From Bdellovibrionota bacterium FG-2 (GTDB lineage Bacteria; Bdellovibrionota; UBA1018): DNA of 13,891 nt. The notes under the pieces were generated by a model. That model saw only the letters and a program-made list of their open reading frames with translations, searched no databases and was not told the origin of the DNA. A program made the position numbers and the translations under genes. This document shows positions 1-13,891 of this stretch, in pieces. The DNA is taken from contig JBBCAV010000163.1 in NCBI GenBank assembly GCA_051382305.1, positions 1 to 13,891 on the forward strand, given 5' to 3'. Numbering within the stretch: the first letter of the stretch is position 1; the number at the start of each line of letters is the position of its first letter.

Positions 1-48
1 GTCATGAACACAATGCTCGCATACAAAAGAGCCAGTGTCCAGAGCTAA
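1..48 (+). CDS. Possible 3' end of an upstream gene (…VMNTMLAYKRASVQS*)
   Basis: Frame 1 is open from the window edge to TAA at 46-48, followed directly by a second TAA at 49-51. Too short to identify. Confidence 0.2.
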   Translation, partial: VMNTMLAYKRASVQS

Positions 49-127
49 TAAAAAGCGAAGTCAGCTCAGGCGCTTAACCGAGCGTATGCCGGAACCCTGG
101 ATGCCCCCGCACCATGGCATTTCCCTC

Positions 128-156
128 TAGACCTTTTCGAGATTTGGGTTAATGCT
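128..156 (+). promoter_or_regulatory. Weak sigma70-like promoter candidate for pilH (TAGACC-N17-AATGCT)
   Basis: TAGACC at 128-133, 17-nt spacer, AATGCT at 151-156, ATG 8 nt later at 165. Same geometry as the pilM promoter, but both hexamers are poor matches. Confidence 0.2.
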
Positions 157-164
157 TGGTTATC

Positions 165-1055
165 ATGACCCTTTCCGCCCCGATTCTCGAAGTCACGCAG
201 GTCACCCAAAGCTTTCGCTCGGGGTTTTGGCTTAAGCGCGCGCAAGTGTTACATAGTGTGAGTCTCACGGTGCCTCGAGGCTCCGTGTTTGGTTTCTTGG
301 GACCCAACGGCGCGGGCAAGACGACGTTGATTCAACTCATTGTAGGCCATCGGGCGCCCACCTCAGGCAGCATTAAAGTCGCAGGATATCCGGCACTGAG
401 TCGCGAAGCGAAAAGCCGCGTGGGGTATTTGCCTGAGCGGCCTTACCTTTATGAACACCTCACGGGTGAGGGGATTTTGCGGTATTTTGGCGCGCTTTCG
501 GGGATGACGGCGCAAAGACTTCGGGAGAGAATGCCGGTGGTGTTGGAGCTGGTGGGTCTAAGTGAGGCGGGTAAACGTGAATTACGCAAATACTCCAAAG
601 GTATGCTCCAGCGAATCGGGATTGCGCAAGCGATCTTGCATGAGCCTGAGTTTCTGGTTTTAGATGAACCCATGAGTGGGCTGGATCCGGTGGGGCGCAA
701 AGAGATGCGCGAGCTGATTGCGAAACTGGCGCGTGAAGGACATACCGTATTTTTTAGCTCGCATGTGATTCCAGATGTTGAAGCGATTTGTGATCAAGTG
801 GCGCTGATACAAAAGGGCCACATCGTGCGTTCGGGGCCGGTGAGTGAGTTTTTGAGTGTGGGCGGCGGTGGCCGCATTGAACTTCGTTATCAGTATGAAA
901 AAGGGGGACTCGTTCAAGTGAATCTGGAAGGGCAAAAAGCCTTGGATGAGCTCTTGCCACAAATCGTCGCAAGAGGCGGACAAGTAATCTCCGTGACGCC
1001 AGAGCGTGGATCACTGGAGGATCTATTTTCCACCTCTCCGGAGAGGTCCAGATGA
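165..1055 (+). CDS. pilH: ABC transporter ATP-binding protein, type IV pilus-associated PilH-like (Myxococcus/Bdellovibrio sense of PilH)
   Basis: Walker A GPNGAGKTT, GYLPE loop, signature variant YSKGMLQR, Walker B LVLDEP, H-loop SSH. Lies before a permease and pilD, as in deltaproteobacterial pil(G)HID. ATG at 165 is preferred to TTG at 156. Confidence 0.85.
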   Translation: MTLSAPILEVTQVTQSFRSGFWLKRAQVLHSVSLTVPRGSVFGFLGPNGAGKTTLIQLIVGHRAPTSGSIKVAGYPALSREAKSRVGYLPERPYLYEHLTGEGILRYFGALSGMTAQRLRERMPVVLELVGLSEAGKRELRKYSKGMLQRIGIAQAILHEPEFLVLDEPMSGLDPVGRKEMRELIAKLAREGHTVFFSSHVIPDVEAICDQVALIQKGHIVRSGPVSEFLSVGGGGRIELRYQYEKGGLVQVNLEGQKALDELLPQIVARGGQVISVTPERGSLEDLFSTSPERSR

Positions 1056-1852
1056 ATACCCCTTTTCCTACCTTTTTGACCGTAGTTCGGGCGGTGGGGC
1101 GCGTGACCTTTTCTGAAATCGTACGCGACAAAGTGCTTTACAACATCGTCTTGTGTGCGTTTCTGCTGTTTGCGCTGAGCGTCCTGGGTATGCGCCTTAT
1201 GTTCATGCATCAAGATCGCTTGCTCCTGGATTTTGGCCTCAGCGCGGTGGGGATTTCTTCAACCGCCATTGCAGTCTTTACCGGCTCAAGCCTTTTAGGG
1301 CGTGAATTTGAGAAGCGCACGATTTTTGTCGCGCTCTCGCGGCCCATCTCCCGCCTCTCCTTTATAGGGGGTAAATATCTTGGCTTGGTCGCCGTCCTCG
1401 CTGTGAACGCGCTCCTCCTGAGCCTGACCTTGCTTGCGTTGCTTGGTTTTGCGACGAGTTCCATGCAAACCTTGATGAACCCGGCGCTTTATTGGGCCTT
1501 GGGCTTGGCGTTTGTTCAGAGTATCGTGATCGCCTCAATCTCCATCTTCTTTTCGACGTTTTCGACGACCTCTTTGTCGGTTATCATGACGTGCGGATTT
1601 TATCTCGTCGGTACCAATATCTCGGGGATTAGGCTTATCGCTCTGAAGTCCGAATCGGAGTTTTATCGCATGCTCTTGCAAGGGGTCTCGCGCGTTTTGC
1701 CCAATTTGGAGCATTTCTCGCTGGGCACGCGGGTCACTTATGGCCTGCCGGTTGAATGGACCTTTGGAGTGGGCGCGATTTTCTACGGCCTCCTTGTGAG
1801 TGGCTTTTTTCTCCTCCTTTCTGGTATTCTAGTTCAGAAAAGAGAAAATTAA
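1052..1852 (+). CDS. pilI: ABC-2 type permease, PilI-like
   Basis: About 6 hydrophobic segments and the motif REFEKRTIFVALSRPISRLSFIGGKYLG typical of ABC-2/NosY-like permeases. ATGA overlap with pilH; SD-like GGAGAGG upstream. Confidence 0.82.
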   Translation: MNTPFPTFLTVVRAVGRVTFSEIVRDKVLYNIVLCAFLLFALSVLGMRLMFMHQDRLLLDFGLSAVGISSTAIAVFTGSSLLGREFEKRTIFVALSRPISRLSFIGGKYLGLVAVLAVNALLLSLTLLALLGFATSSMQTLMNPALYWALGLAFVQSIVIASISIFFSTFSTTSLSVIMTCGFYLVGTNISGIRLIALKSESEFYRMLLQGVSRVLPNLEHFSLGTRVTYGLPVEWTFGVGAIFYGLLVSGFFLLLSGILVQKREN

Positions 1853-2682
1853 TGTTCAATTTGGCCCTGATCCCCCAGCCTCTTATTACCCTTTTTATCA
1901 TTGCTTGTGGCCTAACTCTCGGGAGTTTCTTGAATGTCGTGGTTGCCCGTTTGCCGCATAAAAAATCCATCGTGCGGCCCGGAAGCCACTGTCCGCATTG
2001 CCAAGCGGTCGTCCGCTGGTATGATAATATCCCGGTTTTGAGCTACTTGCTGCTTCGAGGGCGGTGCCGCGCGTGCAAGGCAGAAATTTCGATAAGGTAT
2101 CCAGTCATCGAACTCTTAACGGCACTCCTTTTTGTCGCAGTCTACGTGCGTTTTGGCTTTGGTCCTTGGCTCTTTTTCCGGGATTGGCCGTTTGTGATGA
2201 TCTTGGTGGCCGTGACTTTTATCGATTTGGAGCACCGATTGATTCCGGATGTCTTGAGCCTCGGAGGGCTGGTGTTGGGTTTACTCACCTGTTGGATGGT
2301 TCCTTCAGTGGGTTGGGTTTCGTCGATTTCAGGGGCAGCGCTGGGTTTTGGGGTTTTCTACGCCTTTGCCTGGATCTATGAGCGGTTAACAGGGCGCAGC
2401 GGATTGGGGGGCGGTGATATCAAGTTCTTGGCAATGTTAGGCGCATTCATCGGACCCGAAGGCGTTTTTCACGCCATTTTGATTAGCTCCGTTTTGGGGA
2501 GTGTGATTGGTTTGGGGTGGGGCGTTTTTCTTCGGTTTAGGTATAAAAGAGCAGAGAATTCGCCGAATCTGCCGAATTTAATGAAGCTTTCAATTCCCTA
2601 TGGACCTTTCTTGGTCTTGGGGGGACTGTATTATTATCTTTTGGGTGATCTCATATGGTTCCGATTTACGACACCGATCTAG
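1852..2682 (+). CDS. pilD: Type IV prepilin peptidase / N-methyltransferase (peptidase A24A)
   Basis: GSFLNVV motif, Zn-binding CPHC…CRAC, WYDNIPVLSYL, catalytic aspartates in FIDLEHRLIPD and GGGDIK, C-terminal IPYGPFL. Start moved to ATG 1852 (TAATG coupling with the pilI stop), giving 276 aa. Confidence 0.96.
   Translation: MFNLALIPQPLITLFIIACGLTLGSFLNVVVARLPHKKSIVRPGSHCPHCQAVVRWYDNIPVLSYLLLRGRCRACKAEISIRYPVIELLTALLFVAVYVRFGFGPWLFFRDWPFVMILVAVTFIDLEHRLIPDVLSLGGLVLGLLTCWMVPSVGWVSSISGAALGFGVFYAFAWIYERLTGRSGLGGGDIKFLAMLGAFIGPEGVFHAILISSVLGSVIGLGWGVFLRFRYKRAENSPNLPNLMKLSIPYGPFLVLGGLYYYLLGDLIWFRFTTPI
2644..2650 (+). promoter_or_regulatory. Shine-Dalgarno-like site for the 2655 ORF
   Basis: GGTGATC is complementary to the 16S 3' tail (GAUCACC) and ends 4 nt before ATG 2655. 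Confidence 0.5.
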
Positions 2683-3290
2683 CTGAAGAACGATACGCAC
2701 GCGAAGAGTGGCGGCACGTTGAGCTTTGGGAGAAGCTTGAGATCCAGTTTCGCAGGCGTAGAAAACTTTGGATTGTGCTGGCGATCATCCTGTTTTTGGG
2801 TCTTTCTTCGGTTCCGGTGGTTTGGGAGTCTGCACCGCGCTGGGCGGCGCTCAATGCCGCTCGAAAGCTGGCCTATGAAATGAGTCGCGTAAAACGCCAA
2901 GCGGGACTCGAGCACGCCCCCTACCGAATCATTTTTGATTCTGACGGCTCCCTTCAATACGGAATTGAAACCGTTTCATCCTGTATAAAGGGCGAAAATC
3001 CGAAACTCGTTAGAAGAGGAAGACTCGTGGGGGAGTCGAAGCTTTCGGATTTTGTCCTTTTGACCCCAGCACAGGGAGAAAAGGCGGGTTTACCTAATCT
3101 CGTTCGCATCTTTTGTTACGATCCTCTTTTGGGCGCACAGTTCGCAAGTCCAGATCATCTGGCCGCGAGTTTTGCCATTGCCCCCGCCAAAGATTTGACG
3201 ATCACACCCGCTGGGCAAGAATTGACTGATCATGAGCGGATTGCCTTGTTACTTTTTCAGGGGCAATCGGCAGAAATTTCCTTCGAGTAG
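2655..3290 (+). CDS. FimT/FimU/GspH-like minor-pilin-fold membrane protein lacking the prepilin cleavage motif
   Basis: Single hydrophobic helix LWIVLAIILFLGLSSVP followed by PRWAALNAARKLAYEMSRVKRQA…YRIIF, in register with the FimT/GspH alpha-1 consensus. Two Cys (C110, C154). RRRRK occupies the place of FTLIE. Lies between pilD and pilM and overlaps pilD by 28 nt. Confidence 0.7.
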   Translation: MVPIYDTDLAEERYAREEWRHVELWEKLEIQFRRRRKLWIVLAIILFLGLSSVPVVWESAPRWAALNAARKLAYEMSRVKRQAGLEHAPYRIIFDSDGSLQYGIETVSSCIKGENPKLVRRGRLVGESKLSDFVLLTPAQGEKAGLPNLVRIFCYDPLLGAQFASPDHLAASFAIAPAKDLTITPAGQELTDHERIALLLFQGQSAEISFE

Positions 3291-3319
3291 TTGACCGCTT
3301 TCTTCAGGATGATTACACT
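3291..3319 (+). promoter_or_regulatory. sigma70-like promoter upstream of pilM (TTGACC-N17-TACACT)
   Basis: -35 TTGACC at 3291-3296, exact 17-nt spacer, -10 TACACT at 3314-3319. Fills the 37-nt intergenic gap. Confidence 0.7.
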
Positions 3320-3327
3320 TCAATAGA

Positions 3328-4431
3328 ATGGGTCTATTGTCATCCCTCAACGCAGGTGGAATTTTATCGCAGTTCCAAGGTCTTCTCTCCTTTGGTGGGG
3401 GGGGCTCCGCCGTGGGACTCAGCATCGGAACATCCTCGATCAAACTGGTTGAACTCAAGAAATCTGGCAAGACTTGGAAACTGATTCACTTCGGAATTGT
3501 GCAGCTACCCGATGAAGTAATTGTTAATCGCGAAATCGTAAATCAAATTGCGGTCGTCGAAAGCCTTAAGACGTTGGTTGCCCAGTTGAAGCTTTCTACA
3601 AAAAATGTTTGCACCTCGCTTTCAGGAACCTCTGTCATTATTAAGCGAATGTCGATTGAAGTTCCAAATCCTCGCGAAATTCAAGATCAAGTATTTTGGG
3701 AGGCCGAGCAGTATCTCCCTTTTGATGTTTCGGAAGTTGTCATGGATTTTCAGGTTCTTTCAAAGGGCAAGGATACGAAGACGGATGTGCTATTGGTCGC
3801 GGTGAAGCGATCTGTTTTGGATACCTACATGGCTTGCATCGAAGACGCAGGGCTGGTTCCGAAGATTGTGGATGTCGACTTTTTTGCACTTCAAAATCTG
3901 TTTGAAGTGAACTATCCCATCAATCCCTCCGAAGCGGTTGCTATAGTTGATATTGGGGCCTCGTCTACAAAACTGGTCGTCATGCAGCAGGATATTCCGG
4001 TGTTTACGAAAGACTCGGCGCTGGGAGGCCGAAACCTCACCTTAGAAATTCAAAAGAACCTCAACTTCACATTTTCTGATGCGGAAATTCTAAAAACGAA
4101 TAGTCCGGCGACTGAACTTCCTCAAGAAGTGAGTGATCTCATGCGCGTGATGAATGAAAACCTGGCGACCGAGATCAAGAGAGCTTTGGACTTTTACGCA
4201 GCCTCTTCTGTGGGTGCTCCGGTCTCTTACGTACTGCTGACCGGAGGGGGGGCGAAGGTTCCTGGCTTGTCTCAGATCGTCGAAGAAACCTTGAGACTGC
4301 CCACGCAAGTCATGAATCCCTTTAATTCTATTTCGTATGATCCTTCGGTGTTCACGCAGGATTATATGGCGGCGATCGGGCCGATTGCGGCCGTTCCGAT
4401 CGGCCTCGCTTTACGGGCGGGTGCCCGATGA
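3328..4431 (+). CDS. pilM: Type IV pilus assembly protein PilM (actin/FtsA-like)
   Basis: GLSIGTSSIKLVEL (phosphate-1 variant), WEAEQYLPF, VLLVAVK, VDVDFFAL, IVDIGASST (phosphate-2), LTGGGAKVPGL (adenosine), terminal VPIGLALR. First gene of pilMNOPQ. Confidence 0.96.
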   Translation: MGLLSSLNAGGILSQFQGLLSFGGGGSAVGLSIGTSSIKLVELKKSGKTWKLIHFGIVQLPDEVIVNREIVNQIAVVESLKTLVAQLKLSTKNVCTSLSGTSVIIKRMSIEVPNPREIQDQVFWEAEQYLPFDVSEVVMDFQVLSKGKDTKTDVLLVAVKRSVLDTYMACIEDAGLVPKIVDVDFFALQNLFEVNYPINPSEAVAIVDIGASSTKLVVMQQDIPVFTKDSALGGRNLTLEIQKNLNFTFSDAEILKTNSPATELPQEVSDLMRVMNENLATEIKRALDFYAASSVGAPVSYVLLTGGGAKVPGLSQIVEETLRLPTQVMNPFNSISYDPSVFTQDYMAAIGPIAAVPIGLALRAGAR

Positions 4432-5033
4432 TCAAAATCAATCTCGCGACACGAAAACAAATGGGGGGCGGCGCCCCCAGCGGTGGTAAGACTTCGAAAC
4501 TATCAGGGTTAAATCTCAGTGGCTTGAGTGATTTGCCGATTCGCAAGTTTCTCCCCTTTGTTTTGGCCGCGGTTGTGTTCACGTTCTTTATAGACGGGAT
4601 GAAGGATTCGGATCTTCAGAAGTTTGATGCCGGCATCGTAAAAATGCGCAAAGAGCAGGAAAAATTGCACGCCGAACTTCAAAAAACTCAGGGGTTCGAA
4701 GCGGTTAAAAAAGCGCTTGAAGTGGACGAGCAAATGGTTCGCAAGAAAATTGAGACGATTCAAAAACTTTTGAGCGATAGGGAAGCCAACTATAAAATAT
4801 TGGTGTCTTTGGCGTCTTCTATTCCGTCGGATGTGTGGTTTCGCAATCTCAAACTTGATCAAAGTGAGTTGGCGATCAAGGGGGGGGCTATGGGGTTTAA
4901 TCAAGTGACCGATTTTATGAAATCCTTGAATGAGAGTGCCCTTTTTACTGAAGTACAGGTTCCCAGCACTCAGCAAGAAAAGGATGAGGCAGGGCAAATA
5001 GTGGGTTTTGAAATGTCAGCCAAAAGGCGTTAA
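4428..5033 (+). CDS. pilN: Type IV pilus assembly protein PilN
   Basis: N-terminal MIKINL, one TM helix, coiled coil, and IPSDVWF…IKGGA…VTDFMKSLNES…F of the PilN domain. ATGA overlap with pilM. Confidence 0.92.
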   Translation: MIKINLATRKQMGGGAPSGGKTSKLSGLNLSGLSDLPIRKFLPFVLAAVVFTFFIDGMKDSDLQKFDAGIVKMRKEQEKLHAELQKTQGFEAVKKALEVDEQMVRKKIETIQKLLSDREANYKILVSLASSIPSDVWFRNLKLDQSELAIKGGAMGFNQVTDFMKSLNESALFTEVQVPSTQQEKDEAGQIVGFEMSAKRR

Positions 5034-5048
5034 ACGAGGCGGTAAGCA

Positions 5049-5672
5049 ATGGCCAGTGCAGGACTTAAGGAGTTGTTAGACCGAATTCCTATCAAAGCAG
5101 TTTTTATCGCCTATGTAGCATTCGTGGGTTACGGATATTATGAATTCAAATCCGACCCGAGCTCCCCCCTGAAACAAAAAGAAGCTTTGTATAAATCCTT
5201 AAAGACTGACAATGCACAGCTTCAAGCAAAGGCGAGTCAGGCCCAGGAATTTATTAAGACGCTCGATATGAAGCGAAACGAATTGAGGACACTCACCCAG
5301 CAACTTGCCGATCTGAAGTCGAGTATCAAAAGTCAAGTTGATGTCCCTTCGGTCGTAAAACTCCTTGTCAGTGAAGCCGGGCGGGTGGGTTTGCGAGTTT
5401 CAGGAATCAAGCCCCTCGCACAGGTCACCAAAGAATATTACGTGGAGCAGCCTTTTGATTTTGTGTTTCGTGCGGTTTACGTTCAACTTTTGGTCTTTTT
5501 GCAGCGAATTTCGGAGCTGACGGAACTCTTTGGGGTCGATCGAATTGAACTCAAACCCGTGGGTACAAGTGCGGGCCGGTTCGTGGAACTTGAAGGAAGC
5601 ATTCAAATCAAAGGTTATCGTTATCTCGGGACTCCAGCAGACGAAATCGGCAAGAAGGGAGCTGGAAAGTGA
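5049..5672 (+). CDS. pilO: Type IV pilus assembly protein PilO
   Basis: N-terminal TM, long coiled coil, IP-like segment, KEYYVEQPF…YVQLLVFLQRISEL, C-terminal YRY. Third gene of pilMNOPQ. Confidence 0.9.
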   Translation: MASAGLKELLDRIPIKAVFIAYVAFVGYGYYEFKSDPSSPLKQKEALYKSLKTDNAQLQAKASQAQEFIKTLDMKRNELRTLTQQLADLKSSIKSQVDVPSVVKLLVSEAGRVGLRVSGIKPLAQVTKEYYVEQPFDFVFRAVYVQLLVFLQRISELTELFGVDRIELKPVGTSAGRFVELEGSIQIKGYRYLGTPADEIGKKGAGK

Positions 5673-6169
5673 GCGCACGCTTGTTGATTCTTCTGGCCCT
5701 TCTGAGTGTCGTGCTTCGTTTTACACTTGCGATGGGCGCTGAAACTCCACCGGAGACCCAAACGGCGGCCCCGCCGGAAGCCAATCCCTCTTCAGAGTTA
5801 CTCAAGCTTCGCGATCCTTTTAAAAGACCCAGTGCCTTGGGGGCGGGAGGAGCGGGAGGAGCGGGAGAAGGGCTCAAGCCGACTTCGGCGCTGGAGACTT
5901 TGAGTATCGATCAAATTAAAGTCGTGGGTATCATGACCGGACCCGGTGCGCATCGGGCGATGATTCAAGCGGCAGATGGGCGAACCTTCTTTGTAGCCGA
6001 GAATTCAAAAGTTGGAATGCGCAAGGGTGTGGTAAAGAAAATAACGGCCGATTCAGTGCGCATTCGCGAGAAGATTCTGAATGCCTTAGGCCAAGAAGAG
6101 AGTGTGGATACGGAAATCCGCCTGCCTGCAGAGAGCAGAGGACAAACGGCGTCTGGTGGCGGACCATAG
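5669..6169 (+). CDS. pilP: Type IV pilus assembly protein PilP (no lipobox cysteine)
   Basis: Signal-like N-terminus, RDPF motif, LE…DQIKVVGI…RAMI…DGRTFFV…VG…GVVKKI beta domain. GTG start overlaps the pilO stop (GTGA). Confidence 0.9.
   Translation: MSARLLILLALLSVVLRFTLAMGAETPPETQTAAPPEANPSSELLKLRDPFKRPSALGAGGAGGAGEGLKPTSALETLSIDQIKVVGIMTGPGAHRAMIQAADGRTFFVAENSKVGMRKGVVKKITADSVRIREKILNALGQEESVDTEIRLPAESRGQTASGGGP
5843..5869 (+). repeat. In-frame 9-bp tandem repeat x3 (GCGGGAGGA GCGGGAGGA GCGGGAGAA) in the pilP linker
   Basis: Read directly from the sequence; encodes AGG-AGG-AGE. Confidence 0.85.
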
Positions 6170-6173
6170 GAGG
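6168..6173 (+). promoter_or_regulatory. Strong Shine-Dalgarno site for pilQ
   Basis: AGGAGG 5 nt upstream of ATG 6179. Confidence 0.8.
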
Positions 6174-6178
6174 AAGCG

Positions 6179-8038
6179 ATGAAATTAAAATCAAAATTGA
6201 GACCTTTAGGAGTGCTATTTTTCTTGCTAGGTGGCGCTTGGGTTGGCCTCGCGCTCGGGGCTGCGAAGATTACTTCGGTCGATTTTAAGAATGGCGAAAA
6301 TGAGGGCATACTTGAAATTCGTTCAGATGGTCCCCTGAGTTTTGAAAAACAGGAGAATGCCTCCGACAAACAGATCATTGTCGAGATCAAAGGAGCAAAG
6401 ATTCTTCCCAGTGCTTCACGAAAACTCGATACCTCCTCTTTTCCAGGAAACGTGAGTTTAGTGAGTCCATATCAGGTTGAGGGGCAAGAGGACACGGCGC
6501 GAGTCGTGATCCAACTCCGGCAAGAGGGGAGCGCTGAAGTCGCGCAGGACGGCAACATTTTACGCGTAAAACTTCCGCACGGCACGGACGTAGCTTCGTC
6601 ACAAGCTGCGAAAAGCCCCGCGACCCCAGAGGCGCCTCCTGTGGCGTCGGCTGCTGAACCAGATAAAACACTGGACAAAGCACCGGAAAAAGCATCGGGA
6701 GACAAGACACTTGACGTCTTTGCCGAGAGCCAAGCCACTCGCCGCTTTATTGGCAAGCCCGTGACGTTACAGGTTCGTGATGCCGACGTGAATGATGTGT
6801 TGAGACTGATCGCTGATGCCAGTGGTTTCAACGTGATTGTGGGCGATGACGTGAAGGGCAAAGTGACGCTTTCGATGGTTGATGTCCCTTGGGATCAGGC
6901 CTTGGATGTCGTGCTAAGAACAATGAAACTGGGAGCAGAGCGAAGTAACAATCTCCTTCGGATTGTGACGCTTTCAAATTTGACCACCGAAAAAACCCAA
7001 GAACTTCAAGCCAAAAAGGCCGCGCAGGCAAGTGCGCCTCGCGTGACGCGGGTGTTTCCGATTAGTTATGCTGATCCTAATGACTTGCAAGTGCTGCTGG
7101 TAAAATTTGGAGCGCAGCAGGGCAGTGGAGGCGGCACTGCCGGGGACGCAGCATCAGGAGGGGCTTCGGTCCAAGTGGATAAGCGAACTAACAATATTGT
7201 TGTCCAAGATATTCCCGAAAATATTGAACGAATGAAGAAACTCGTCGAACTGCTGGACACCCAAACACCTCAAGTGATGATTGAAGCGAAGGTTGTCGAA
7301 GCGTCGGAGAATTTTTCGAAGTCGTTGTCGGGAAACCTTGGAATCGGGGCGACTTCAGGAAAATATTTTGCCAGTGTGGGTGGGGGAGCCAACCCCACGG
7401 ATGCCTTGGTGGGAACGCCAGGGGTTTTTTCCGATGGAAACGCCATAGGGACCGGCCCGACGGGAAACAATCGGTTTGGGGTAAGTTTATTGGCTGGCGC
7501 CTTTCGCATCAACGCGCTCTTGAACCTAGCTGAAAGTGAGTCACAAATTAGGCTCGTTTCTGCGCCAAAGACAGTGGTGCTCAATAAACAAAGTGCGACC
7601 ATTGTGCAGGGAACTCCTGTGCTGGTTCCAAAAGGCGCGACCATTGCCGGAGTGGGCAATACGGTAATTCCGGAAGTCCAAAGTGCGAACCTGAGCATGA
7701 CCGTTAAGCCCACTGTGACTAATGACGGAAACGTTCTCATGGATCTCACCGTAACGCGTGACGTGCCTCAGTCGCTTGGGGGCGGACAAAGCGGAATCGG
7801 CTCTCGCTCGATGACAACGAGCGTGGTGGTTGAAAGTGGTACGACCTTGGTGATTGGCGGGATCTACACGATGCGGACGAATCAGGAGAGTTCGGGATTC
7901 CCTATCTTGCGAAAAATTCCTCTTATTGGGTGGCTCTTTGGGAGTGAATCCTCTGCGACAGACAAGTCTGAGCTTTTCTTTTTCATCACTCCAAGGATAT
8001 TGAATGTAAAAGAGGCGGGTATTTCAAGCCCGAGTTGA
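6179..8038 (+). CDS. pilQ: Type IV pilus secretin PilQ
   Basis: Signal peptide, one AMIN-like domain, Pro/Ala-rich linker, N0 domain (FIGKPVTL…VPWDQALDVVL), a second N-domain (VDKRTNNIVV), secretin core (QVMIEAKVVE, VKPTVT, TTLVIGGIY, GFPILRKIPLIGWLF, ELFFFITPRI). Confidence 0.97.
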   Translation: MKLKSKLRPLGVLFFLLGGAWVGLALGAAKITSVDFKNGENEGILEIRSDGPLSFEKQENASDKQIIVEIKGAKILPSASRKLDTSSFPGNVSLVSPYQVEGQEDTARVVIQLRQEGSAEVAQDGNILRVKLPHGTDVASSQAAKSPATPEAPPVASAAEPDKTLDKAPEKASGDKTLDVFAESQATRRFIGKPVTLQVRDADVNDVLRLIADASGFNVIVGDDVKGKVTLSMVDVPWDQALDVVLRTMKLGAERSNNLLRIVTLSNLTTEKTQELQAKKAAQASAPRVTRVFPISYADPNDLQVLLVKFGAQQGSGGGTAGDAASGGASVQVDKRTNNIVVQDIPENIERMKKLVELLDTQTPQVMIEAKVVEASENFSKSLSGNLGIGATSGKYFASVGGGANPTDALVGTPGVFSDGNAIGTGPTGNNRFGVSLLAGAFRINALLNLAESESQIRLVSAPKTVVLNKQSATIVQGTPVLVPKGATIAGVGNTVIPEVQSANLSMTVKPTVTNDGNVLMDLTVTRDVPQSLGGGQSGIGSRSMTTSVVVESGTTLVIGGIYTMRTNQESSGFPILRKIPLIGWLFGSESSATDKSELFFFITPRILNVKEAGISSPS

Positions 8039-8044
8039 GAAACC

Positions 8045-8677
8045 ATGGCGAAGTCGGAAAAATCAGAGATTCAGCCGCTTATCTATTCCTATCTCAAGAG
8101 ATATCAAGAGGACCCTTCTTCTCGTGTCTTTGCCCCTCTTGCTGAGGCCTACCGCCGGGCGGGCCTCATTGATGAAGCTATTGAGATTGCGCGCGAAGGC
8201 CTGCGCGTTCATCCCGCTTTTGTGGGCGGGCGAGTGGCTTTGGCTCGTGCTCTTTTCGAAAAGCAACTTTATGCCGAAGTGGTCGAGCAGATGGCGCCGA
8301 TCGTTCAAGATGTGCCCGATAATCTGGTCGCTCAGCGCTTATTTGCAGACTCTTGTTTGATGTTGGGTCGGCTGATGGAGGCTTTGTCTTCATATAAGAT
8401 GCTTTTGTATTTCGCGCCTCAGGATTTTGAGACTGCGCAGATCGTTCAAGAGCTTGAAGCAAATGCCTATCAGGGTGGGGCCTTAGTGCTTCAAACCGAT
8501 GCCAAGAAGACGGAACTTTCGGCCTTTTCGGTAAGGAGTGCTGGGGAGGCGATCGACGGGGACCCGGATACAAAGAAATCCCGTTGGATTGCCCAAATTG
8601 AACGGTTGCAGAATCTGCTGCAGAAGGTCGAGGGGTATCGCATTACTAATGCGATGCGCCAAGATCACAGCGCATAA
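8045..8677 (+). CDS. Cytoplasmic tetratricopeptide-repeat protein
   Basis: DPSSRVFAPLAEAYRRAGLIDEAI…GL…HP…GRVALARAL…PDNLVAQRL gives about 3 TPR motifs, followed by a C-terminal amphipathic helix. No signal peptide. Confidence 0.85.
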   Translation: MAKSEKSEIQPLIYSYLKRYQEDPSSRVFAPLAEAYRRAGLIDEAIEIAREGLRVHPAFVGGRVALARALFEKQLYAEVVEQMAPIVQDVPDNLVAQRLFADSCLMLGRLMEALSSYKMLLYFAPQDFETAQIVQELEANAYQGGALVLQTDAKKTELSAFSVRSAGEAIDGDPDTKKSRWIAQIERLQNLLQKVEGYRITNAMRQDHSA

Positions 8678-8706
8678 TTGACAATCTTACTTCATTTAGA
8701 TAGGAA
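8678..8706 (+). promoter_or_regulatory. sigma70-like promoter candidate upstream of efp (TTGACA-N17-TAGGAA)
   Basis: Perfect -35 TTGACA at 8678-8683 in an AT-rich 38-nt gap. The -10 is imperfect and overlaps an AGGA SD-like sequence. Confidence 0.5.
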
Positions 8707-8715
8707 TACCAAACT

Positions 8716-9279
8716 ATGTACGCAACAAATCAGTTTAAAAAAGGTTTGAAGGTTGAACTCGAAGGAGTTCCCTTTGAGATCGTAGATTTTCAACACGTCA
8801 GTCCTGGGAAAGGTCGCGCATTTACACGCACCAAGCTCAAGAATATGCTGAATCAAAATGTCATCGAACGCACCATTACTTCGGGCGATAAGCTCGATCG
8901 TGCGAACACTGAAGAAAAAGAAATGCAATTTCTCTATAAGAATTTAGAGGGTTACCATTTCATGAATAGTGCTAACTATGAGCAGGTTGTGCTTACCGAT
9001 GAGCAGTTGGGCCAAGACAAAGACTTTTTGATGGAGAACCTCACGATCAAAGTGATGTATTTCAATGAAAGACCGATTGGCGTTGAACTTCCAACTTTCG
9101 TGGTGCTTAAGATCACTTCCACAGAACCCTCGTTTCGTGGCGATACAGTAACCGGGGGAAGTAAGCCTGCTACGCTCGAAACAGGCGCTGTGGTTCAAGT
9201 TCCCTTTCATTTGAAGGAAGGGGATTTGATTAAGGTCGATACCCGGGACTACTCGTACAGTGAAAAAGCCAACAAATAA
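8716..9279 (+). CDS. efp: Translation elongation factor P
   Basis: 187 aa with [28 protein letters not shown]…[14 protein letters not shown]…IKVDTR. Confidence 0.98.
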
Positions 9280-9790
9280 GCCTAAGAAACGGGGTGTTTC
9301 CCAAAACCCTCCCGCAGGATTTGAGCATATCGAGCGCTACGTCGCGCTGATGCGAAAACATGATTTGGCGGAACTAGATTGGGAGTTTGAGGGCGCGCGC
9401 GTTCATTTGCGCTTTAATTCGCCCGAAGAAAAGCCGTCACAACGGGGGCTTTCATTAGCCGCTTTAACGCCCCCTTTGCCTTTGCCGAGTGCGCCGCAAG
9501 CGCACGCAGTTCCCGAAGTGGTTTCGAAAACGCCTCAGCTTTCGTCTAATCAAAAACAAATCGTCTCACCGTTCGTGGGAACATTCTATCGAGCGCCTTC
9601 CCCCGGAGCGGACCCTTACGTTCGAGAGGGCAAAATGATTAAGCGCGGGGATGTGCTTTGTATCATTGAAGCCATGAAGCTGATGAACGAGATTGAAGGC
9701 GAGTTTTCGGGCAAAATTACCTCCATTCTAGTGGAAAATGGCCAGCCCGTTGAGTTCGGAGAGCCGCTTTTTGTTTTAGAGGTTCTGTAG
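9260..9790 (+). CDS. accB: Acetyl-CoA carboxylase biotin carboxyl carrier protein
   Basis: [13 protein letters not shown], biotinylation motif [24 protein letters not shown]. The N-terminal helix/strand region aligns with AccB. GTG 9260 is the only in-frame start upstream of it and overlaps efp by 20 nt. Confidence 0.96.
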
Positions 9791-9797
9791 CGAGGTT

Positions 9798-11153
9798 ATG
9801 ACTCCTCCCTTTCGAAAAGTTCTGATTGCAAATCGAGGCGAAATTGCTCTTCGAATTATTCGGGCATGTCGCGAGCTTGGGATTTCGACGGTGGCCGCTT
9901 ATTCCACAGCGGATGCTGATTCGCTCCCGGTTAAATTCGCAGATGAAGCAGTTTGCATTGGTCCTCCTCATCCAAAATTCAGCTATTTAAACATGCCTAG
10001 CATTCTCTCGGCTGCGGATATCACCGGTGCGGATGCGATCCATCCCGGGTATGGGTTTCTCTCTGAAAATCCTGAATTTGCCAGACTTTGCGCGCAATGT
10101 GATATTACTTTTATTGGTCCCAGTCCTGAAAATATTGAAGCGATGGGAGTGAAGACCCGCGCGCGCGCTATTGCAAAAGAGGCTGGCGTACCCCTGCTTC
10201 CCGGAACGCTTGCCGCGGTCCCAGATTGCGATGCGGCGATTCAGGCCTCTGAGCAGATAGGTTATCCTGTCATTCTTAAGGCCTCAGGAGGGGGCGGGGG
10301 ACGTGGGATTTATGTCATCTACAATGCGGATCAGCTGCGTGCGGTTTTTGACCGCGCCTCTCTTGAGGCCCTCTCGGCCTTTGGGGATCGCGCAATGTAC
10401 ATTGAGAAATATTGTGAGCACCCTCGGCATGTGGAGATTCAAGTCCTGTGTGATCGCGAGGGTAACCGAATCGCCTTGGGTGAACGCGATTGCACGATCC
10501 AGCGCCGGCATCAAAAACTGATTGAAGAATCCCCCAGTCCTGTTGTGGATGCTTCGCTTAGGCAGGCCATGGTGAAGGCGGCCTTGAAACTTTGCGCTGC
10601 CGTAAAATACGATAGTGTGGGGACCGTGGAGTTTCTGGTCGATGAAAAGAAGAATTTCTATTTCATGGAGATGAACACTCGTATTCAGGTAGAGCATGCC
10701 GTCACGGAGATGGTGACGGGTATTGATTTGATCAAGGAACAGATTCGAATTGCGGCAGGTCAAGCGACCAAAATAAAACAATCAGATGTCGTGATTCGTT
10801 CGCATGCGATGGAATTTCGAATCAACGCAGAGGATCCAGATCGCTTTTTTCCGTCACCGGGCACGATCACTGCGCTTCATGTTCCGGGCGGCTTTGGGGT
10901 ACGAGTTGACTCGTTTGTTTTTGCGCAATACAAGGTCGTTCCCTTCTATGATTCGATGATCGCCAAAGTGATCGTGCATGCGCCAACCCGCGCAGAGGCG
11001 ATTCTTAAAATGCGTCAAGCTCTTGACGAGTTCGTGGTCGAAGGGATCAAAACAAACATTCCTTTCTATAAAAAGATCCTCGCTTCAAAGAAATTTAGGG
11101 ACTCGGATTACGATACGCATTTCTTGGAAGCCTTTCTTCCAAAATACGAGTAA
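9798..11153 (+). CDS. accC: Acetyl-CoA carboxylase biotin carboxylase subunit
   Basis: KVLIANRGEIA, HPGYGFLSEN, KASGGGGGRG, RDCTIQRRHQKLIEE, FMEMNTRIQVEH, RINAEDP, YDSMIAK. SD GAGGT; follows accB. Confidence 0.98.
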   Translation: MTPPFRKVLIANRGEIALRIIRACRELGISTVAAYSTADADSLPVKFADEAVCIGPPHPKFSYLNMPSILSAADITGADAIHPGYGFLSENPEFARLCAQCDITFIGPSPENIEAMGVKTRARAIAKEAGVPLLPGTLAAVPDCDAAIQASEQIGYPVILKASGGGGGRGIYVIYNADQLRAVFDRASLEALSAFGDRAMYIEKYCEHPRHVEIQVLCDREGNRIALGERDCTIQRRHQKLIEESPSPVVDASLRQAMVKAALKLCAAVKYDSVGTVEFLVDEKKNFYFMEMNTRIQVEHAVTEMVTGIDLIKEQIRIAAGQATKIKQSDVVIRSHAMEFRINAEDPDRFFPSPGTITALHVPGGFGVRVDSFVFAQYKVVPFYDSMIAKVIVHAPTRAEAILKMRQALDEFVVEGIKTNIPFYKKILASKKFRDSDYDTHFLEAFLPKYE

Positions 11154-11165
11154 AATTAAACTGTT

Positions 11166-12095
11166 GTGACAAACTCTAAGTCCTCTAAACCTCCACGCAA
11201 TTCGGAAGGGACGCGGATCGATCTCGGCGAAGATTTGCTTGATGATTCTCCGATTGTTTTGCCGGAGGTGCTAGAGGTTTCAGCGCCCTTAACGGCACCT
11301 CCAGAAACTTCTGATGACGAGTTCGAGAGCGCGCGCATTTTGCTCAGTGAAGGTCTGGTTGAAGATGCGAAGAAAATACTTCGAAAACTTCTTCGTAGCG
11401 ATACCGAAAAAAAGGGAAACACTGTCGCCGTTCGAGAAATGCTGGATCGTATTCAGAAAACCGAACTCGATGAGTTGATTCGTGGCAATGGACAGCTTCG
11501 CGCCCGGTTTCGAAGCTTAGGTCCCCTTGAGAAGGGAGCTTTGTCGGAAGTCGATTCAGAAGCTCTAATGCGAAAACTTGATCAAGATTTTGGCCTGGGG
11601 CTATTTCCGGATCGGACTTCAGAACAATCGTCGCATCCACTTGCACTTTTTGGCTCGCAAGAGGCCATGGATCAGTTTGCCACCAAGTTGGAGGGCGATC
11701 TCAAGGACGCATCGGTTCAAGATCGCCTCGATGTGGGGATCGCTTTTTTGGAAATGGGTCTCTATATCTTGGCGGGTCGTCAGTTTGAGGCCGCCATACG
11801 GATCGGGCATCCGCCATCCATGCCCGCCTTGGCTCTTTTGTCTTATGCTTGGCTTTTGGCGGAGAGGCCTTTTGAGGCGATCGGCGTTTTGCAGCCCCAT
11901 CTTGGAAAAACAGAACTTACGCAAGAGGAGAAACTAGAGTTTTTCTATTTGATGGGTCGTGCCCATGAGTCTTTGCATAAGCTTGAATCTGCATTCTTTT
12001 GGTATCAGAAGATTCAGGAAATGGATTATCATTACCGCGATGTGAGCGAACGAATGGACCGCCTAGTACGAAGCGCATCGGACGTAAAGGGATGA
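11166..12095 (+). CDS. TPR protein, Bd2492 / SgmX C-terminal-like (putative MglA-interacting polar protein)
   Basis: Acidic low-complexity N-terminus, a TPR-like unit (ARILLSEGLVEDAKKILRKLL), then three C-terminal TPRs (DVGIAFLEMGLY…F; FYLMGRAHE; DYHYRDVSERMDRL) resembling the recalled DLGIAYKEMGL…YRDV..R pattern of the SgmX family. Sits directly before a TamB-like gene. Confidence 0.7.
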   Translation: MTNSKSSKPPRNSEGTRIDLGEDLLDDSPIVLPEVLEVSAPLTAPPETSDDEFESARILLSEGLVEDAKKILRKLLRSDTEKKGNTVAVREMLDRIQKTELDELIRGNGQLRARFRSLGPLEKGALSEVDSEALMRKLDQDFGLGLFPDRTSEQSSHPLALFGSQEAMDQFATKLEGDLKDASVQDRLDVGIAFLEMGLYILAGRQFEAAIRIGHPPSMPALALLSYAWLLAERPFEAIGVLQPHLGKTELTQEEKLEFFYLMGRAHESLHKLESAFFWYQKIQEMDYHYRDVSERMDRLVRSASDVKG

Positions 12096-13891
12096 AAAAG
12101 AACGCCGTCTATCTCTTCTTGCTAGGGGTTATTCTCTCCATTATTGGGGTTTTGTTTTTCATTCAAAGCGCGGCTTTTGCACCGATTTTTAAGGGTGTTG
12201 TAACCCGTTTGCTGCCGGTAGATTCGGGGATTGACGGTGATTTTGAGGGGCTTTCAATAAAAATTTTTCCACCTGGTTTTAGGGTGATTAAGCCGAGCGT
12301 CGTTTTACGTGAGCGCAATATTCTACGCCTCCCTTCGGGTTCGCGCCTGCGGGCGGAAAGCGTGGACTTGGGTTTTTTGCCCTTTCAAATGCTGACCGGA
12401 AGCATTCGCATTCATTCGGTGCAGGTAGTGGGGGCGGATATTAGATTGGATCTTACGCAATCCATAGAATCCCCGGCATCCAAAGAAAAGAAAATCCACC
12501 TTGATGAGTTTCTCAACTTTCAAGTCGATTCTCTTGCCGTCGAGCGGACGCAAGTGGGGCTCGTTTTGCCCGATTCTGTCGGTGCGGTTGATTTTAAGAT
12601 TAACAAGGCTCAGCTGGAGCAGCGGGTTGTTAAGAACGGGAAAAAAGGTTTTGCACTTTTTTCCGATCTTTCAACGCTCAAGAGTGAGAAGTTAAGCGCT
12701 TTGGGTGTTTCTATACCCATGGAAGCACTCCAAATTGAAGCCCAGGTGGAGGCTGATCGGGTTGAGATTTCAAAGTTAGAGTTACGAGGCGGCGCACCTG
12801 GAGATGCGCACGTTGAAGCCGCAGGAGTAATTTCGGGCAATCTCTTTGACCCCAAGACGCTCACACTCGATCTGGATACAAAACTTGAGGCCGATCTTCT
12901 CGCCTTAAAGGAACCGCTGATGAAGTTGGGTCTTGGCAAAACTCTACCTGGGGGAGGGCTTTATTGGACCGGAAAAGTTCATGGGAATTTGCTGGAGTTT
13001 CCGCGATACGGCAGTGTTCAAGGACAAATTTCATTAAAGAACCTGCGCTTCAAAAGCTGGGAGGCTGATCAAGTCAGTGTGAATGGTGGTTGGTTGGGCG
13101 CAAAAGGGGGTGGGTTTCTCGCAATCGAAAAAGGTCTGATTCAAAGTCCTGAGCGCGCACGTGTTGGCGGGAATCAGCCGGGAGGGGGAGGCCGAATTGA
13201 GATCGGTGCTTTTAAGGTTCCCGTGAACAATCCGGCAAAGGAGCCGATTGAGATTCCTTTGAAACTCTCTCGGGCGCATTTGCATTGGTTAGCAGGCCCA
13301 GTGACTCGCGAGCTCTACCCCTTGGATGTTCGAGCAAGTGGGGAGGTAAATCTCTCCGTCCAAAAAGGTTCCGAGCGTTCGGCCCCCTGGCTAGTGATGG
13401 CGAGGGTTGATTTGGCAGCTACGGATTTGCAACTCGACAACCAAAGGCTCGGAAAAGTAAAAGCGTTGCGTTGGATTTTGAAAGTCTCACATGTTCAGAT
13501 CAACGGAGAAGTCGCAATCGATGCGGATGCGGTTCGAATGCGGGGGCCCTCGGGGGTCTCATTAAGTCTCGGGGAGACTCACTTGAATGTCGGCGGAGAA
13601 GTAAACTTCAAGGATGGCTTTGATCTTAAGGCCTCGGGGCCCGTGAACTTGTCAGATATCGGCGCTATCGCGCAAAAGCCTATTTCAGGAAAGGGTTCGC
13701 TTAAACTGCATGTGCATGGCCCCACTTCGAAGGTGTTTTTGGATTTTGATCCTGATTTAAAAGACGCTTCGTATTTGGGCTTGTATTTGGGCGACCTCAA
13801 GGGACGAATCACCTGGGATGATGATCCTTCCCATCTCATATTTTCTGATGTGCAGGCTAAGAAGGGGCGCACTTCTTATCTGGGTAAAGGG
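12092..13891 (+). CDS. tamB: AsmA/TamB-like (translocation/assembly module) protein, 3'-truncated by the window edge
   Basis: Absent from the ORF track. ATG 12092 (ATGA overlap) opens 600 stop-free codons to the window end: MKKNAVYLFLLGVILSIIGVLFFIQSAAFA…; N-terminal anchor, AsmA-like LRAESVDLGFLPFQMLTGSIRIHSVQVVGADIRL, then Gly-punctuated beta-strand repeats. The diagnostic DUF490 C-terminus is not in the window. Confidence 0.72.
   Translation, partial: MKKNAVYLFLLGVILSIIGVLFFIQSAAFAPIFKGVVTRLLPVDSGIDGDFEGLSIKIFPPGFRVIKPSVVLRERNILRLPSGSRLRAESVDLGFLPFQMLTGSIRIHSVQVVGADIRLDLTQSIESPASKEKKIHLDEFLNFQVDSLAVERTQVGLVLPDSVGAVDFKINKAQLEQRVVKNGKKGFALFSDLSTLKSEKLSALGVSIPMEALQIEAQVEADRVEISKLELRGGAPGDAHVEAAGVISGNLFDPKTLTLDLDTKLEADLLALKEPLMKLGLGKTLPGGGLYWTGKVHGNLLEFPRYGSVQGQISLKNLRFKSWEADQVSVNGGWLGAKGGGFLAIEKGLIQSPERARVGGNQPGGGGRIEIGAFKVPVNNPAKEPIEIPLKLSRAHLHWLAGPVTRELYPLDVRASGEVNLSVQKGSERSAPWLVMARVDLAATDLQLDNQRLGKVKALRWILKVSHVQINGEVAIDADAVRMRGPSGVSLSLGETHLNVGGEVNFKDGFDLKASGPVNLSDIGAIAQKPISGKGSLKLHVHGPTSKVFLDFDPDLKDASYLGLYLGDLKGRITWDDDPSHLIFSDVQAKKGRTSYLGKG

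Follow-up and report, generated by a model that had tools for sequence, protein, structure and literature searches.

In this study, we ask what a protein that has the fold of a pilin, and lacks the signal by which pilins are processed, might do when its gene stands directly behind that of the prepilin peptidase. The window, that is, the whole stretch of DNA analyzed here, comprises 13,891 nucleotides (nt) of Bdellovibrionota bacterium FG-2 (assembly GCA_051382305.1, contig JBBCAV010000163.1, positions 1 to 13,891 of the forward strand). Its long open reading frames (ORFs) all lie on the + strand and together form a type IV pilus (T4P) block. The gene at 2655..3290 (+) encodes a 211-residue bitopic protein that lacks a class III signal peptide and is predicted to fold as a FimU/GspH-type pilin. 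We show that this pilin-like gene is real, conserved and under purifying selection, and that it is not a lesion. With regard to its function, we lean towards the view that the product is a permanently inner membrane-anchored pseudo-pilin, most likely an accessory partner of PilD.

A pilin-like fold in a protein outside the known families

The AlphaFold2 (AF2) model, built on a family alignment of 145 sequences, has a mean pLDDT of 93.8 and a pTM of 0.80. A single helix spans residues 6-86, and after it comes a beta-sheet that begins with a strand at residues 90-94; the membrane helix runs unbroken into the helix packed on the head, and the lollipop form of pilins, with alpha1C packed on an antiparallel beta-sheet, is present in the model. 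In a Foldseek search of the PDB, the first 11 rows (chains of five entries) were all FimU, EpsH, GspH or XcpH, the FimU entries 4ipu and 4ipv being matched with E from 6e-5 and a TM score normalised to the target of 0.64-0.68. VIA-align, which is independent of Foldseek and was run against 48,161 representative chains, gave FimU (4ipu_A, Z 11.0, 126 aligned residues, rmsd 3.0, model residues 55-211 against chain residues 23-150), EpsH (4dq9_A, Z 9.8, 60-211 against 27-181), GspH (2knq, Z 8.6, 54-211 against 1-135) and FimT (7qyi, Z 7.3, 57-204 against 28-144). The rows below FimT had a Z of at most 5.9 and were generic long helices aligned to residues 1-89. By these Z scores the modelled head is of the GspH type, and the match of the model to FimU/GspH-type pilins is far above chance, as the preliminary description of this DNA had anticipated when it proposed a FimT/FimU-like pilin. 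In the ESM Atlas, the protein's own cluster (0.95) is followed by N_methyl/GspH clusters (0.89).

The protein begins with a cytoplasmic tail (residues 1-37; 2655..2765, +), which is helical from residue 6 in the AF2 model and ends in RRRRK. The tail is followed by a membrane helix (residues 38-57; 2766..2825, +), delimited by the model and by conservation, which is the equivalent of pilin alpha1N and includes Pro54, and by a periplasmic alpha1C and beta-sheet head of the FimU/EpsH/GspH/FimT type (residues 58-211; 2826..3287, +), which carries the C110/C154 pair and a conserved C-terminal strand. The helix has what is expected of a pilin alpha1N, namely a hydrophobic stretch at 38-57, Pro54 and continuity into alpha1C. 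The N-terminus is probably in the cytoplasm because the basic cluster stands before the hydrophobic helix, and a periplasmic location of the head fits the conserved Cys pair.

It had been suggested from the letters alone that Pro54 corresponds to pilin position 22 and that the remaining residues then fall into the register of FimT/FimU/GspH minor pilins. A check of the translation found all of the residues named at their places: A-I-I at 43-45, A-A at 68-69, L72, M76, K80 and A83, with YRIIF at residues 90-94 coinciding with the strand 90-94 of the model. The VIA-align ranges place Pro54 at about pilin position 21-25, provided that the chains are numbered from the mature N-terminus, so the structural alignment supports the register to within a few residues. 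In this register, pilin positions -1 to +5 are F32|R33-R34-R35-R36-K37, encoded at nt 2748-2765 and preceded by a 32-residue Glu/Arg/Trp-rich tail.

At the level of sequence the protein does not belong to any named family. There was no match to Pfam or NCBIfam models, even at E 1 and E 10. Neither PF07963 (N_methyl) nor PF12019 (GspH/FimT/FimU) matched the window protein at E<=1, and the cut-off of the latter family is not reached. N_methyl is absent from the 25 Pfam families listed for the 145 members of the alignment, four of which match PF12019 weakly (best E 0.056), and a PF12019 scan of the genome also gave no match. Weak Pfam matches to OppC_N (18/145) and Wzz (10/145) cover the basic and membrane-helix region and were taken as compositional. 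When the family profile was compared by hhalign with the genome's GspH-position prepilin, the match was weak and is taken as no more than a hint (probability 1.2%, E 0.043, 46 columns in alpha1C and beta1). A profile search of a collection of 5.8 billion sequences returned 28 matches, all in the same family and named in their sources only as 'hypothetical protein'. A full-text literature search, whose reach ended short of subscription journals and bioRxiv supplements, found no publication describing a pilin-fold protein that is coupled to pilD and lacks the signal. The family is thus so far unnamed, being described neither in Pfam and NCBIfam nor by its source names or the literature searched, and we do not file the protein as a pilin because it has neither Gly-1 nor Glu5 and does not match the family profile.

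The structurally closest known proteins are FimU, FimT, GspH and EpsH, and the conceptually closest are archaeal FlaF/FlaG. The protein shares with FimU/FimT and GspH/EpsH/XcpH the head fold and the alpha1 arrangement (model residues 54-211) and conserves the Pro22 equivalent. It differs from them in lacking the class III signal peptide (Gly-1, Phe1, Glu5). It also differs from FimU and GspH in having a 37-residue cytoplasmic helix, or two residues in distant members, in the position of its gene with pilD and not in a minor-pilin cluster, and in the lack of detectable sequence similarity, since a profile search of the PDB with the family gave no match at E<=10.

Conservation and distribution of the family

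Relatives were collected with phmmer over 1.84 billion cluster representatives, which gave 194 proteins at E<=1e-3, of which 168 also reach E<=1e-10; almost every one is about 200 residues long and aligned from residue 1. The alignment comprises 145 of 159 proteins (185-230 residues), leaving out P0148 and 13 fragments or longer forms. In it, C110 is invariant, and D8, R13, W19, E23, W25, E26, P54, W63, C154, D180 and R195 are kept in at least 90% of members; within the tail the counts are 143 for W19 and E23, 141 for E26, 134 for W25 and 132 for D8 and R13. Pro54 is kept in 138 members, and a basic cluster stands ahead of the membrane helix in nearly all of them.

The available text of PMC4471445 states that Gly-1 is required for prepilin processing and that Glu5 has a role in assembly and is dispensable for processing. 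None of the 145 members has Gly in the -1 column or Glu in the +5 column, where Arg (74), Leu (16), Lys (15) and Trp (10) occur, and only one has Asp or Glu in the membrane helix (columns 38-55). Nor was a G|FxxxE motif found in any of 14 more distant homologues. The replacement of the cleavage motif by F|RRRRK, noticed in the preliminary description, is therefore not a recent lesion. Matches to G-hydrophobic-xxx-E do occur in six of the 145 members and were set aside as chance; in the members checked they never stand in front of the membrane helix, lying instead in the GYELWE-type stretch of the cytoplasmic helix or past the membrane helix. Moreover, comparison with an orthologue of 84% identity (L014) gave a dN/dS of 0.098 at a dS of 0.99, with 0.055 for residues 1-37 and 0.104 for the remainder, so that the dN/dS check proposed in the preliminary description points to purifying selection.

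One metagenomic protein, P0152 (362 residues), appears as a fusion of PilD with the pilin-like protein. Because its middle part is a frame-shifted PilD tail, with the final third of the PilD portion scrambled, we take it to be most likely an assembly or frameshift artefact. It shows the order of pilD followed by the pilin-like gene in another organism.

A profile search for the family covered 301 genomes, sampled evenly across the phylum Bdellovibrionota, and detected the pilin-like gene in 77. Every sampled genome of families f1-f13 has it (for example 34/34, 12/12, 5/5 and 6/6), and weak matches were obtained in seven of the nine genomes of family f14. In other large families of the phylum the same profile search found the gene in 0/20, 0/34, 0/9, 0/35, 0/14 and 0/18 genomes, and the single match among the 67 genomes of family f21, 45 residues long with an internal stop, is probably spurious. 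The family is thus confined to part of the Bdellovibrionota, a single branch of predatory-type bacteria.

The N-terminus is graded across these families. The 37-residue tail is found in the order that contains the window; family f3 has the tail without its first ~15 residues, f6 and f7 have ~20 residues before the helix; in f12 and f13 there are 25-30, and their sequence is a different one. Members of f14 have only Met-Lys or Met-Arg, after which the hydrophobic helix begins at once, with a Pro at about residue 20. Conservation of the Glu/Arg/Trp-rich leader, raised as a question by the preliminary description, therefore holds within one order and fails beyond it, where distant members have shorter tails or two residues only. 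An AF2 model of the f14 member L099, built on a 39-sequence alignment, reached a pLDDT of 94.3 and a pTM of 0.87, with a helix at 2-51 and then a sheet. Its VIA-align search was led by FimU (Z 10.8), EpsH (10.2), GspH (8.5) and FimT (7.5), and in the next rows full-length pilins (Z 4.5-5.4) placed model residue 1 on pilin residues 7-18. The predicted fold of this leaderless form suggests that the core of the family is a FimU-type pilin that starts a few residues into alpha1N, without leader or Glu5. The long conserved tail would then be a later or lineage-specific addition.

Linkage to pilD and the genes around it

In the window, pilD (1852..2682, +; PF06750 E 3.1e-37, PF01478 E 4.7e-21) encodes the prepilin peptidase/N-methyltransferase. 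Its ORF as listed begins at 1756, and the likely start is the ATG at 1852, where the preceding permease gene ends; the four-Cys motif and the catalytic-region residues of PilD are invariant in 50 orthologues. The pilin-like gene starts 28 nt before the end of the pilD stop codon (2680-2682), so that 2655..2682 (+) is read in two frames, and the placement directly behind the prepilin peptidase gene, from which the preliminary description set out, is correct.

We collected 64 loci of the same order from genome contigs with two N-terminal peptide patterns, which biases the sample towards members keeping that N-terminus. Their labels are of the Bdellovibrionota type, with the exception of single metagenome-assembled genomes (MAGs) assigned to Pseudomonadota and to Deltaproteobacteria; almost all are labelled MAG, though L018 is not. 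In 63 of the 64 loci pilD lies directly upstream, and in the remaining one the contig begins 143 nt ahead of the gene, too close for pilD to fit. Measured from the pilD stop, the gene starts at exactly -28 nt in 54/63 loci, +1 to +7 nt in seven and about -24 nt in one with an uncertain start call. A constant 28-nt overlap means that the conserved first nine codons of the pilin-like gene are the last nine of pilD in another frame, a case of dual coding. The exact length persists among proteins that are only 30-47% identical. On the other side, the spacing to pilM ranges from -11 to 339 nt (median 72.5). pilM is missing after the gene in six of the 64 loci, four of which have no room for it; L071 has ~550 nt of room, and L035 has 4 kb without pilM.

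The 14 distant homologues came from families f3, f6, f7, f12, f13 and f14. In 13 of them pilD adjoins, with an overlap of 4 nt in the ORF listings of L081, L084, L085, L089, L091 and L097 and abutting genes in L090, and in only five does pilM follow; in the other nine no pilM is found within about 3.5 kb and the gene still stands beside pilD. The coupling to pilD is tight, probably translational, and outlasts the linkage to pilM. A conserved pilD-x-pilM trio, as the preliminary description had supposed, is thus not what is found; the conserved linkage is that of pilD with the pilin-like gene. Among five genomes inspected that lack the gene, three have two ABC transporter genes, pilD and pilM adjacent in that order, and two have unrelated genes after pilD.

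Upstream of pilD the window carries an ABC transporter ATPase gene in a PilH-like position (156..1055, +; PF00005 E 9.8e-28), the first gene of the overlapping operon, and an ABC-2 type permease gene in a PilI-like position (1052..1852, +; PF12679/PF12730), the stop of the former overlapping the start of the latter at 1052-1055. In relatives the genes upstream of the ABC ATPase are unrelated and mostly on the opposite strand. Downstream, all on the + strand, follow pilM (3328-4431, Pfam PilM_2), pilN (4428-5033, PilN), pilO (5049-5672, PilO), pilP (5669-6169, PilP) and pilQ (6179-8038, Secretin). Directly after pilQ, a 210-residue TPR protein (8045-8677, +) has an N-terminus without an obvious signal peptide or lipobox, and a pilotin-like or PilF/Tgl-like role is possible for it. 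Then come efp, accB and accC. No Pfam family matched the ORFs at 11166-12095 and 11999-13891 at E<=0.001. The latter is still open where the window ends and codes for more than 600 residues with an N-terminal membrane helix. As listed the two overlap by ~100 nt, and one start is therefore probably wrong.

The order of ABC ATPase, permease, pilD and pilMNOPQ in the window matches the pilG-pilH-pilI-pilD...pilMNOPQ order of the Myxococcus xanthus-type T4P (T4aP) cluster, and the end-to-end overlap of the ABC genes and pilD resembles M. xanthus pilH-pilI-pilD. Between pilD and pilM of M. xanthus there are presumably pilS2 and pilR2. T4P clusters of the Bdellovibrionales are arranged like those of the Cystobacterineae, and a pilin-like gene between pilD and pilM is not described, in the available text of PMC6060248. 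At the distant locus L084, a histidine-kinase-like and a response-regulator-like gene, judged from their N-terminal sequence only, lie upstream. The f14 loci L085, L086, L090 and L091, from genomes of 1.3-1.7 Mb, have a conserved set of short genes upstream of pilD encoding a ~230-residue membrane protein, a ~200-residue ABC-ATPase-like protein and a ~215-residue membrane protein, which may be a reduced PilG/H/I-like module.

The genome has at least 10 N_methyl sites that pass the cut-off. Its ordinary prepilins include a T2SS-G type pseudopilin, a GspH-position protein, a GspJ-like protein, PilA-like pilins and 526-residue pilin-like proteins. Each of these prepilins carries a motif of the G|F(T/S)L(V/I/L)E type. 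Since canonical prepilins, including the one in the GspH position, are present, the pilin-like protein is an addition and not a replacement. On contig G000:C264 (L006, L009, L012) there are three neighbouring, very large pilin-like genes with canonical class III signal peptides, whose products have 526 residues as called and 649-685 in the open frames. A second, short A24 peptidase gene on another contig (G000:C40:37289-37594, open frame of 189 residues) possibly encodes a Tad-type prepilin peptidase.

Possible roles of the pilin-like protein

Prepilin peptidases are generally regarded as acting alone, and the bacterial proteins known to have a pilin fold are all regarded as their substrates. 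If the protein is a pseudo-pilin partner of PilD, its FimU/GspH-type head would lie in the periplasm with the pilin-like alpha1N helix and its Pro22 equivalent as membrane anchor, and the basic clamp RRRRK and the conserved 37-residue cytoplasmic helix would stand in place of the short leader, Gly-1, Phe1 and Glu5. With these elements replaced, it would not be a PilD substrate and would not be extracted into a filament. Made together with PilD from the overlapping frame, it may link the peptidase to (pre)pilins or to a minor-pilin primer by pilin-pilin type contacts, those by which FimU and GspH ordinarily touch the subunits beside them, and a partner in the cytoplasm would be bound by the cytoplasmic helix. 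Non-cleavage in vivo, retention in the membrane, physical binding to PilD and the role itself are what we infer. More tentatively, PilD may have in this protein a stoichiometric pseudo-substrate subunit that it does not cleave. The alpha1N helix would then lie on PilD, the head would capture prepilins or the primer and deliver subunits to the machine after processing, and a cytoplasmic component such as PilM, PilC or the ATPase would be coupled in through the cytoplasmic helix. Such a pseudo-substrate subunit would be the first accessory subunit known for prepilin peptidases.

Several observations weigh against a partnership with PilD. The gene is separated from pilD by a gap of 835 nt in L074 and by ~2.7 kb with three ORFs at the distant locus L083. 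Within its order, the gene immediately precedes pilM at 58 of the 64 loci, an arrangement that would suit a function in the pilus machine just as well. The gene is lacking from sister families in the phylum (the six counts of zero given above, besides the one weak match in f21), and pilD is directly followed by pilM in three of the five gene-less genomes inspected, so that PilD needs no such protein in general. As the conserved cytoplasmic helix is found in one order only, whatever it binds is lineage-specific. Finally, the structures of the family are all predicted ones, and the adjacency to pilD could reflect operon history alone.

The main rival, which we regard as doubtful though serious, is a fixed component of the T4P basal body independent of PilD, acting as a dock for the minor-pilin/PilY1 primer, as a stem of the idle machine, or as a cap or anchor at the filament base (a chain terminator). 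The FimU/GspH fold and the position between pilD and pilM in those 58 loci speak for it, as does the fact that FimU and GspH are the minor pilins that adjoin the major subunit. An archaeal parallel may be drawn with FlaF, a signal-peptide-less, archaellin-like protein that acts at the filament base. According to the available text of PMC4425475, FlaF is monotopic, with a long N-terminal helix, an incomplete filament-subunit domain and no class III signal peptide, and is thought to remain at the base and not to enter the filament, with a role in S-layer binding; linkage to a peptidase gene is not mentioned there. FlaF/FlaG (ArlF/ArlG) are analogous to the pilin-like protein in architecture only: they are monotopic, have a filament-subunit-like domain and lack the class III signal peptide. 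They differ in being archaeal, in their archaellin beta-sandwich fold and in S-layer binding, and FlaF is not among the Foldseek and VIA-align matches listed, no comparison aimed at FlaF/FlaG having been made. TadG was also considered as an anchored pilin-like analogue and was dropped, being treated as a tip minor pilin in the available part of the literature. What tells against a basal-body role independent of PilD is the gene arrangement: the overlap is with pilD and the pilM spacing is variable, the nine distant loci keep their pilD neighbour with no pilM within about 3.5 kb, and L035, in the same order, has none in its 4 kb downstream. The PilD-partner reading and the basal-body role are compatible with each other.

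Because ABC ATPase, permease, pilD and pilin-like gene overlap end to end in the window and ABC genes lie upstream in most of the related loci, the protein might also be an accessory subunit of the PilH/PilI-like ABC transporter and the functional counterpart of M. xanthus PilG. In M. xanthus, pili require PilG, PilH and PilI, which are also described as necessary for pilin export (PMC3724824, citing Wu 1998 for the former, in the available text). This we consider unlikely, since families without the pilin-like gene keep the ABC-ABC-pilD order and since L084 and L089, of one distant family, have no ABC genes directly upstream; L082 of that same family does have an ABC permease ~2.5 kb upstream. 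It is less likely still that PilD or a different protease does cut the protein, at a site other than the canonical one, and that it joins the pilus as a minor pilin of an unusual kind. Processing does not require Glu5 (available text of PMC4471445), and a Gly occurs inside the membrane helix at column 41 in 21/145 members and at column 42 in 23/145. That Gly is unconserved, however, and Gly-1 is absent throughout; the conserved tail helix runs on into the membrane helix, ahead of which almost every member has the basic cluster. A decaying, functionless relic of a minor pilin gene, which the missing pilin-defining motif might suggest, is hardly credible in view of a dN/dS of 0.10 (0.055 in the tail), 194 relatives of constant length and presence in every sampled genome of 13 families.

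If the PilD-partner reading is true, an accessory subunit would join pilin maturation; if the protein is instead a fixed piece of the pilus base, a pilin-like component would join that base as a bacterial counterpart of archaeal FlaF/FlaG. A profile could be built and a name chosen for the family defined here, which is unnamed so far and comprises 194 clusters at 50% identity. The series of N-termini, from two residues to a conserved helix of 37 residues, amounts to a natural experiment on the function of the pilin N-terminus.

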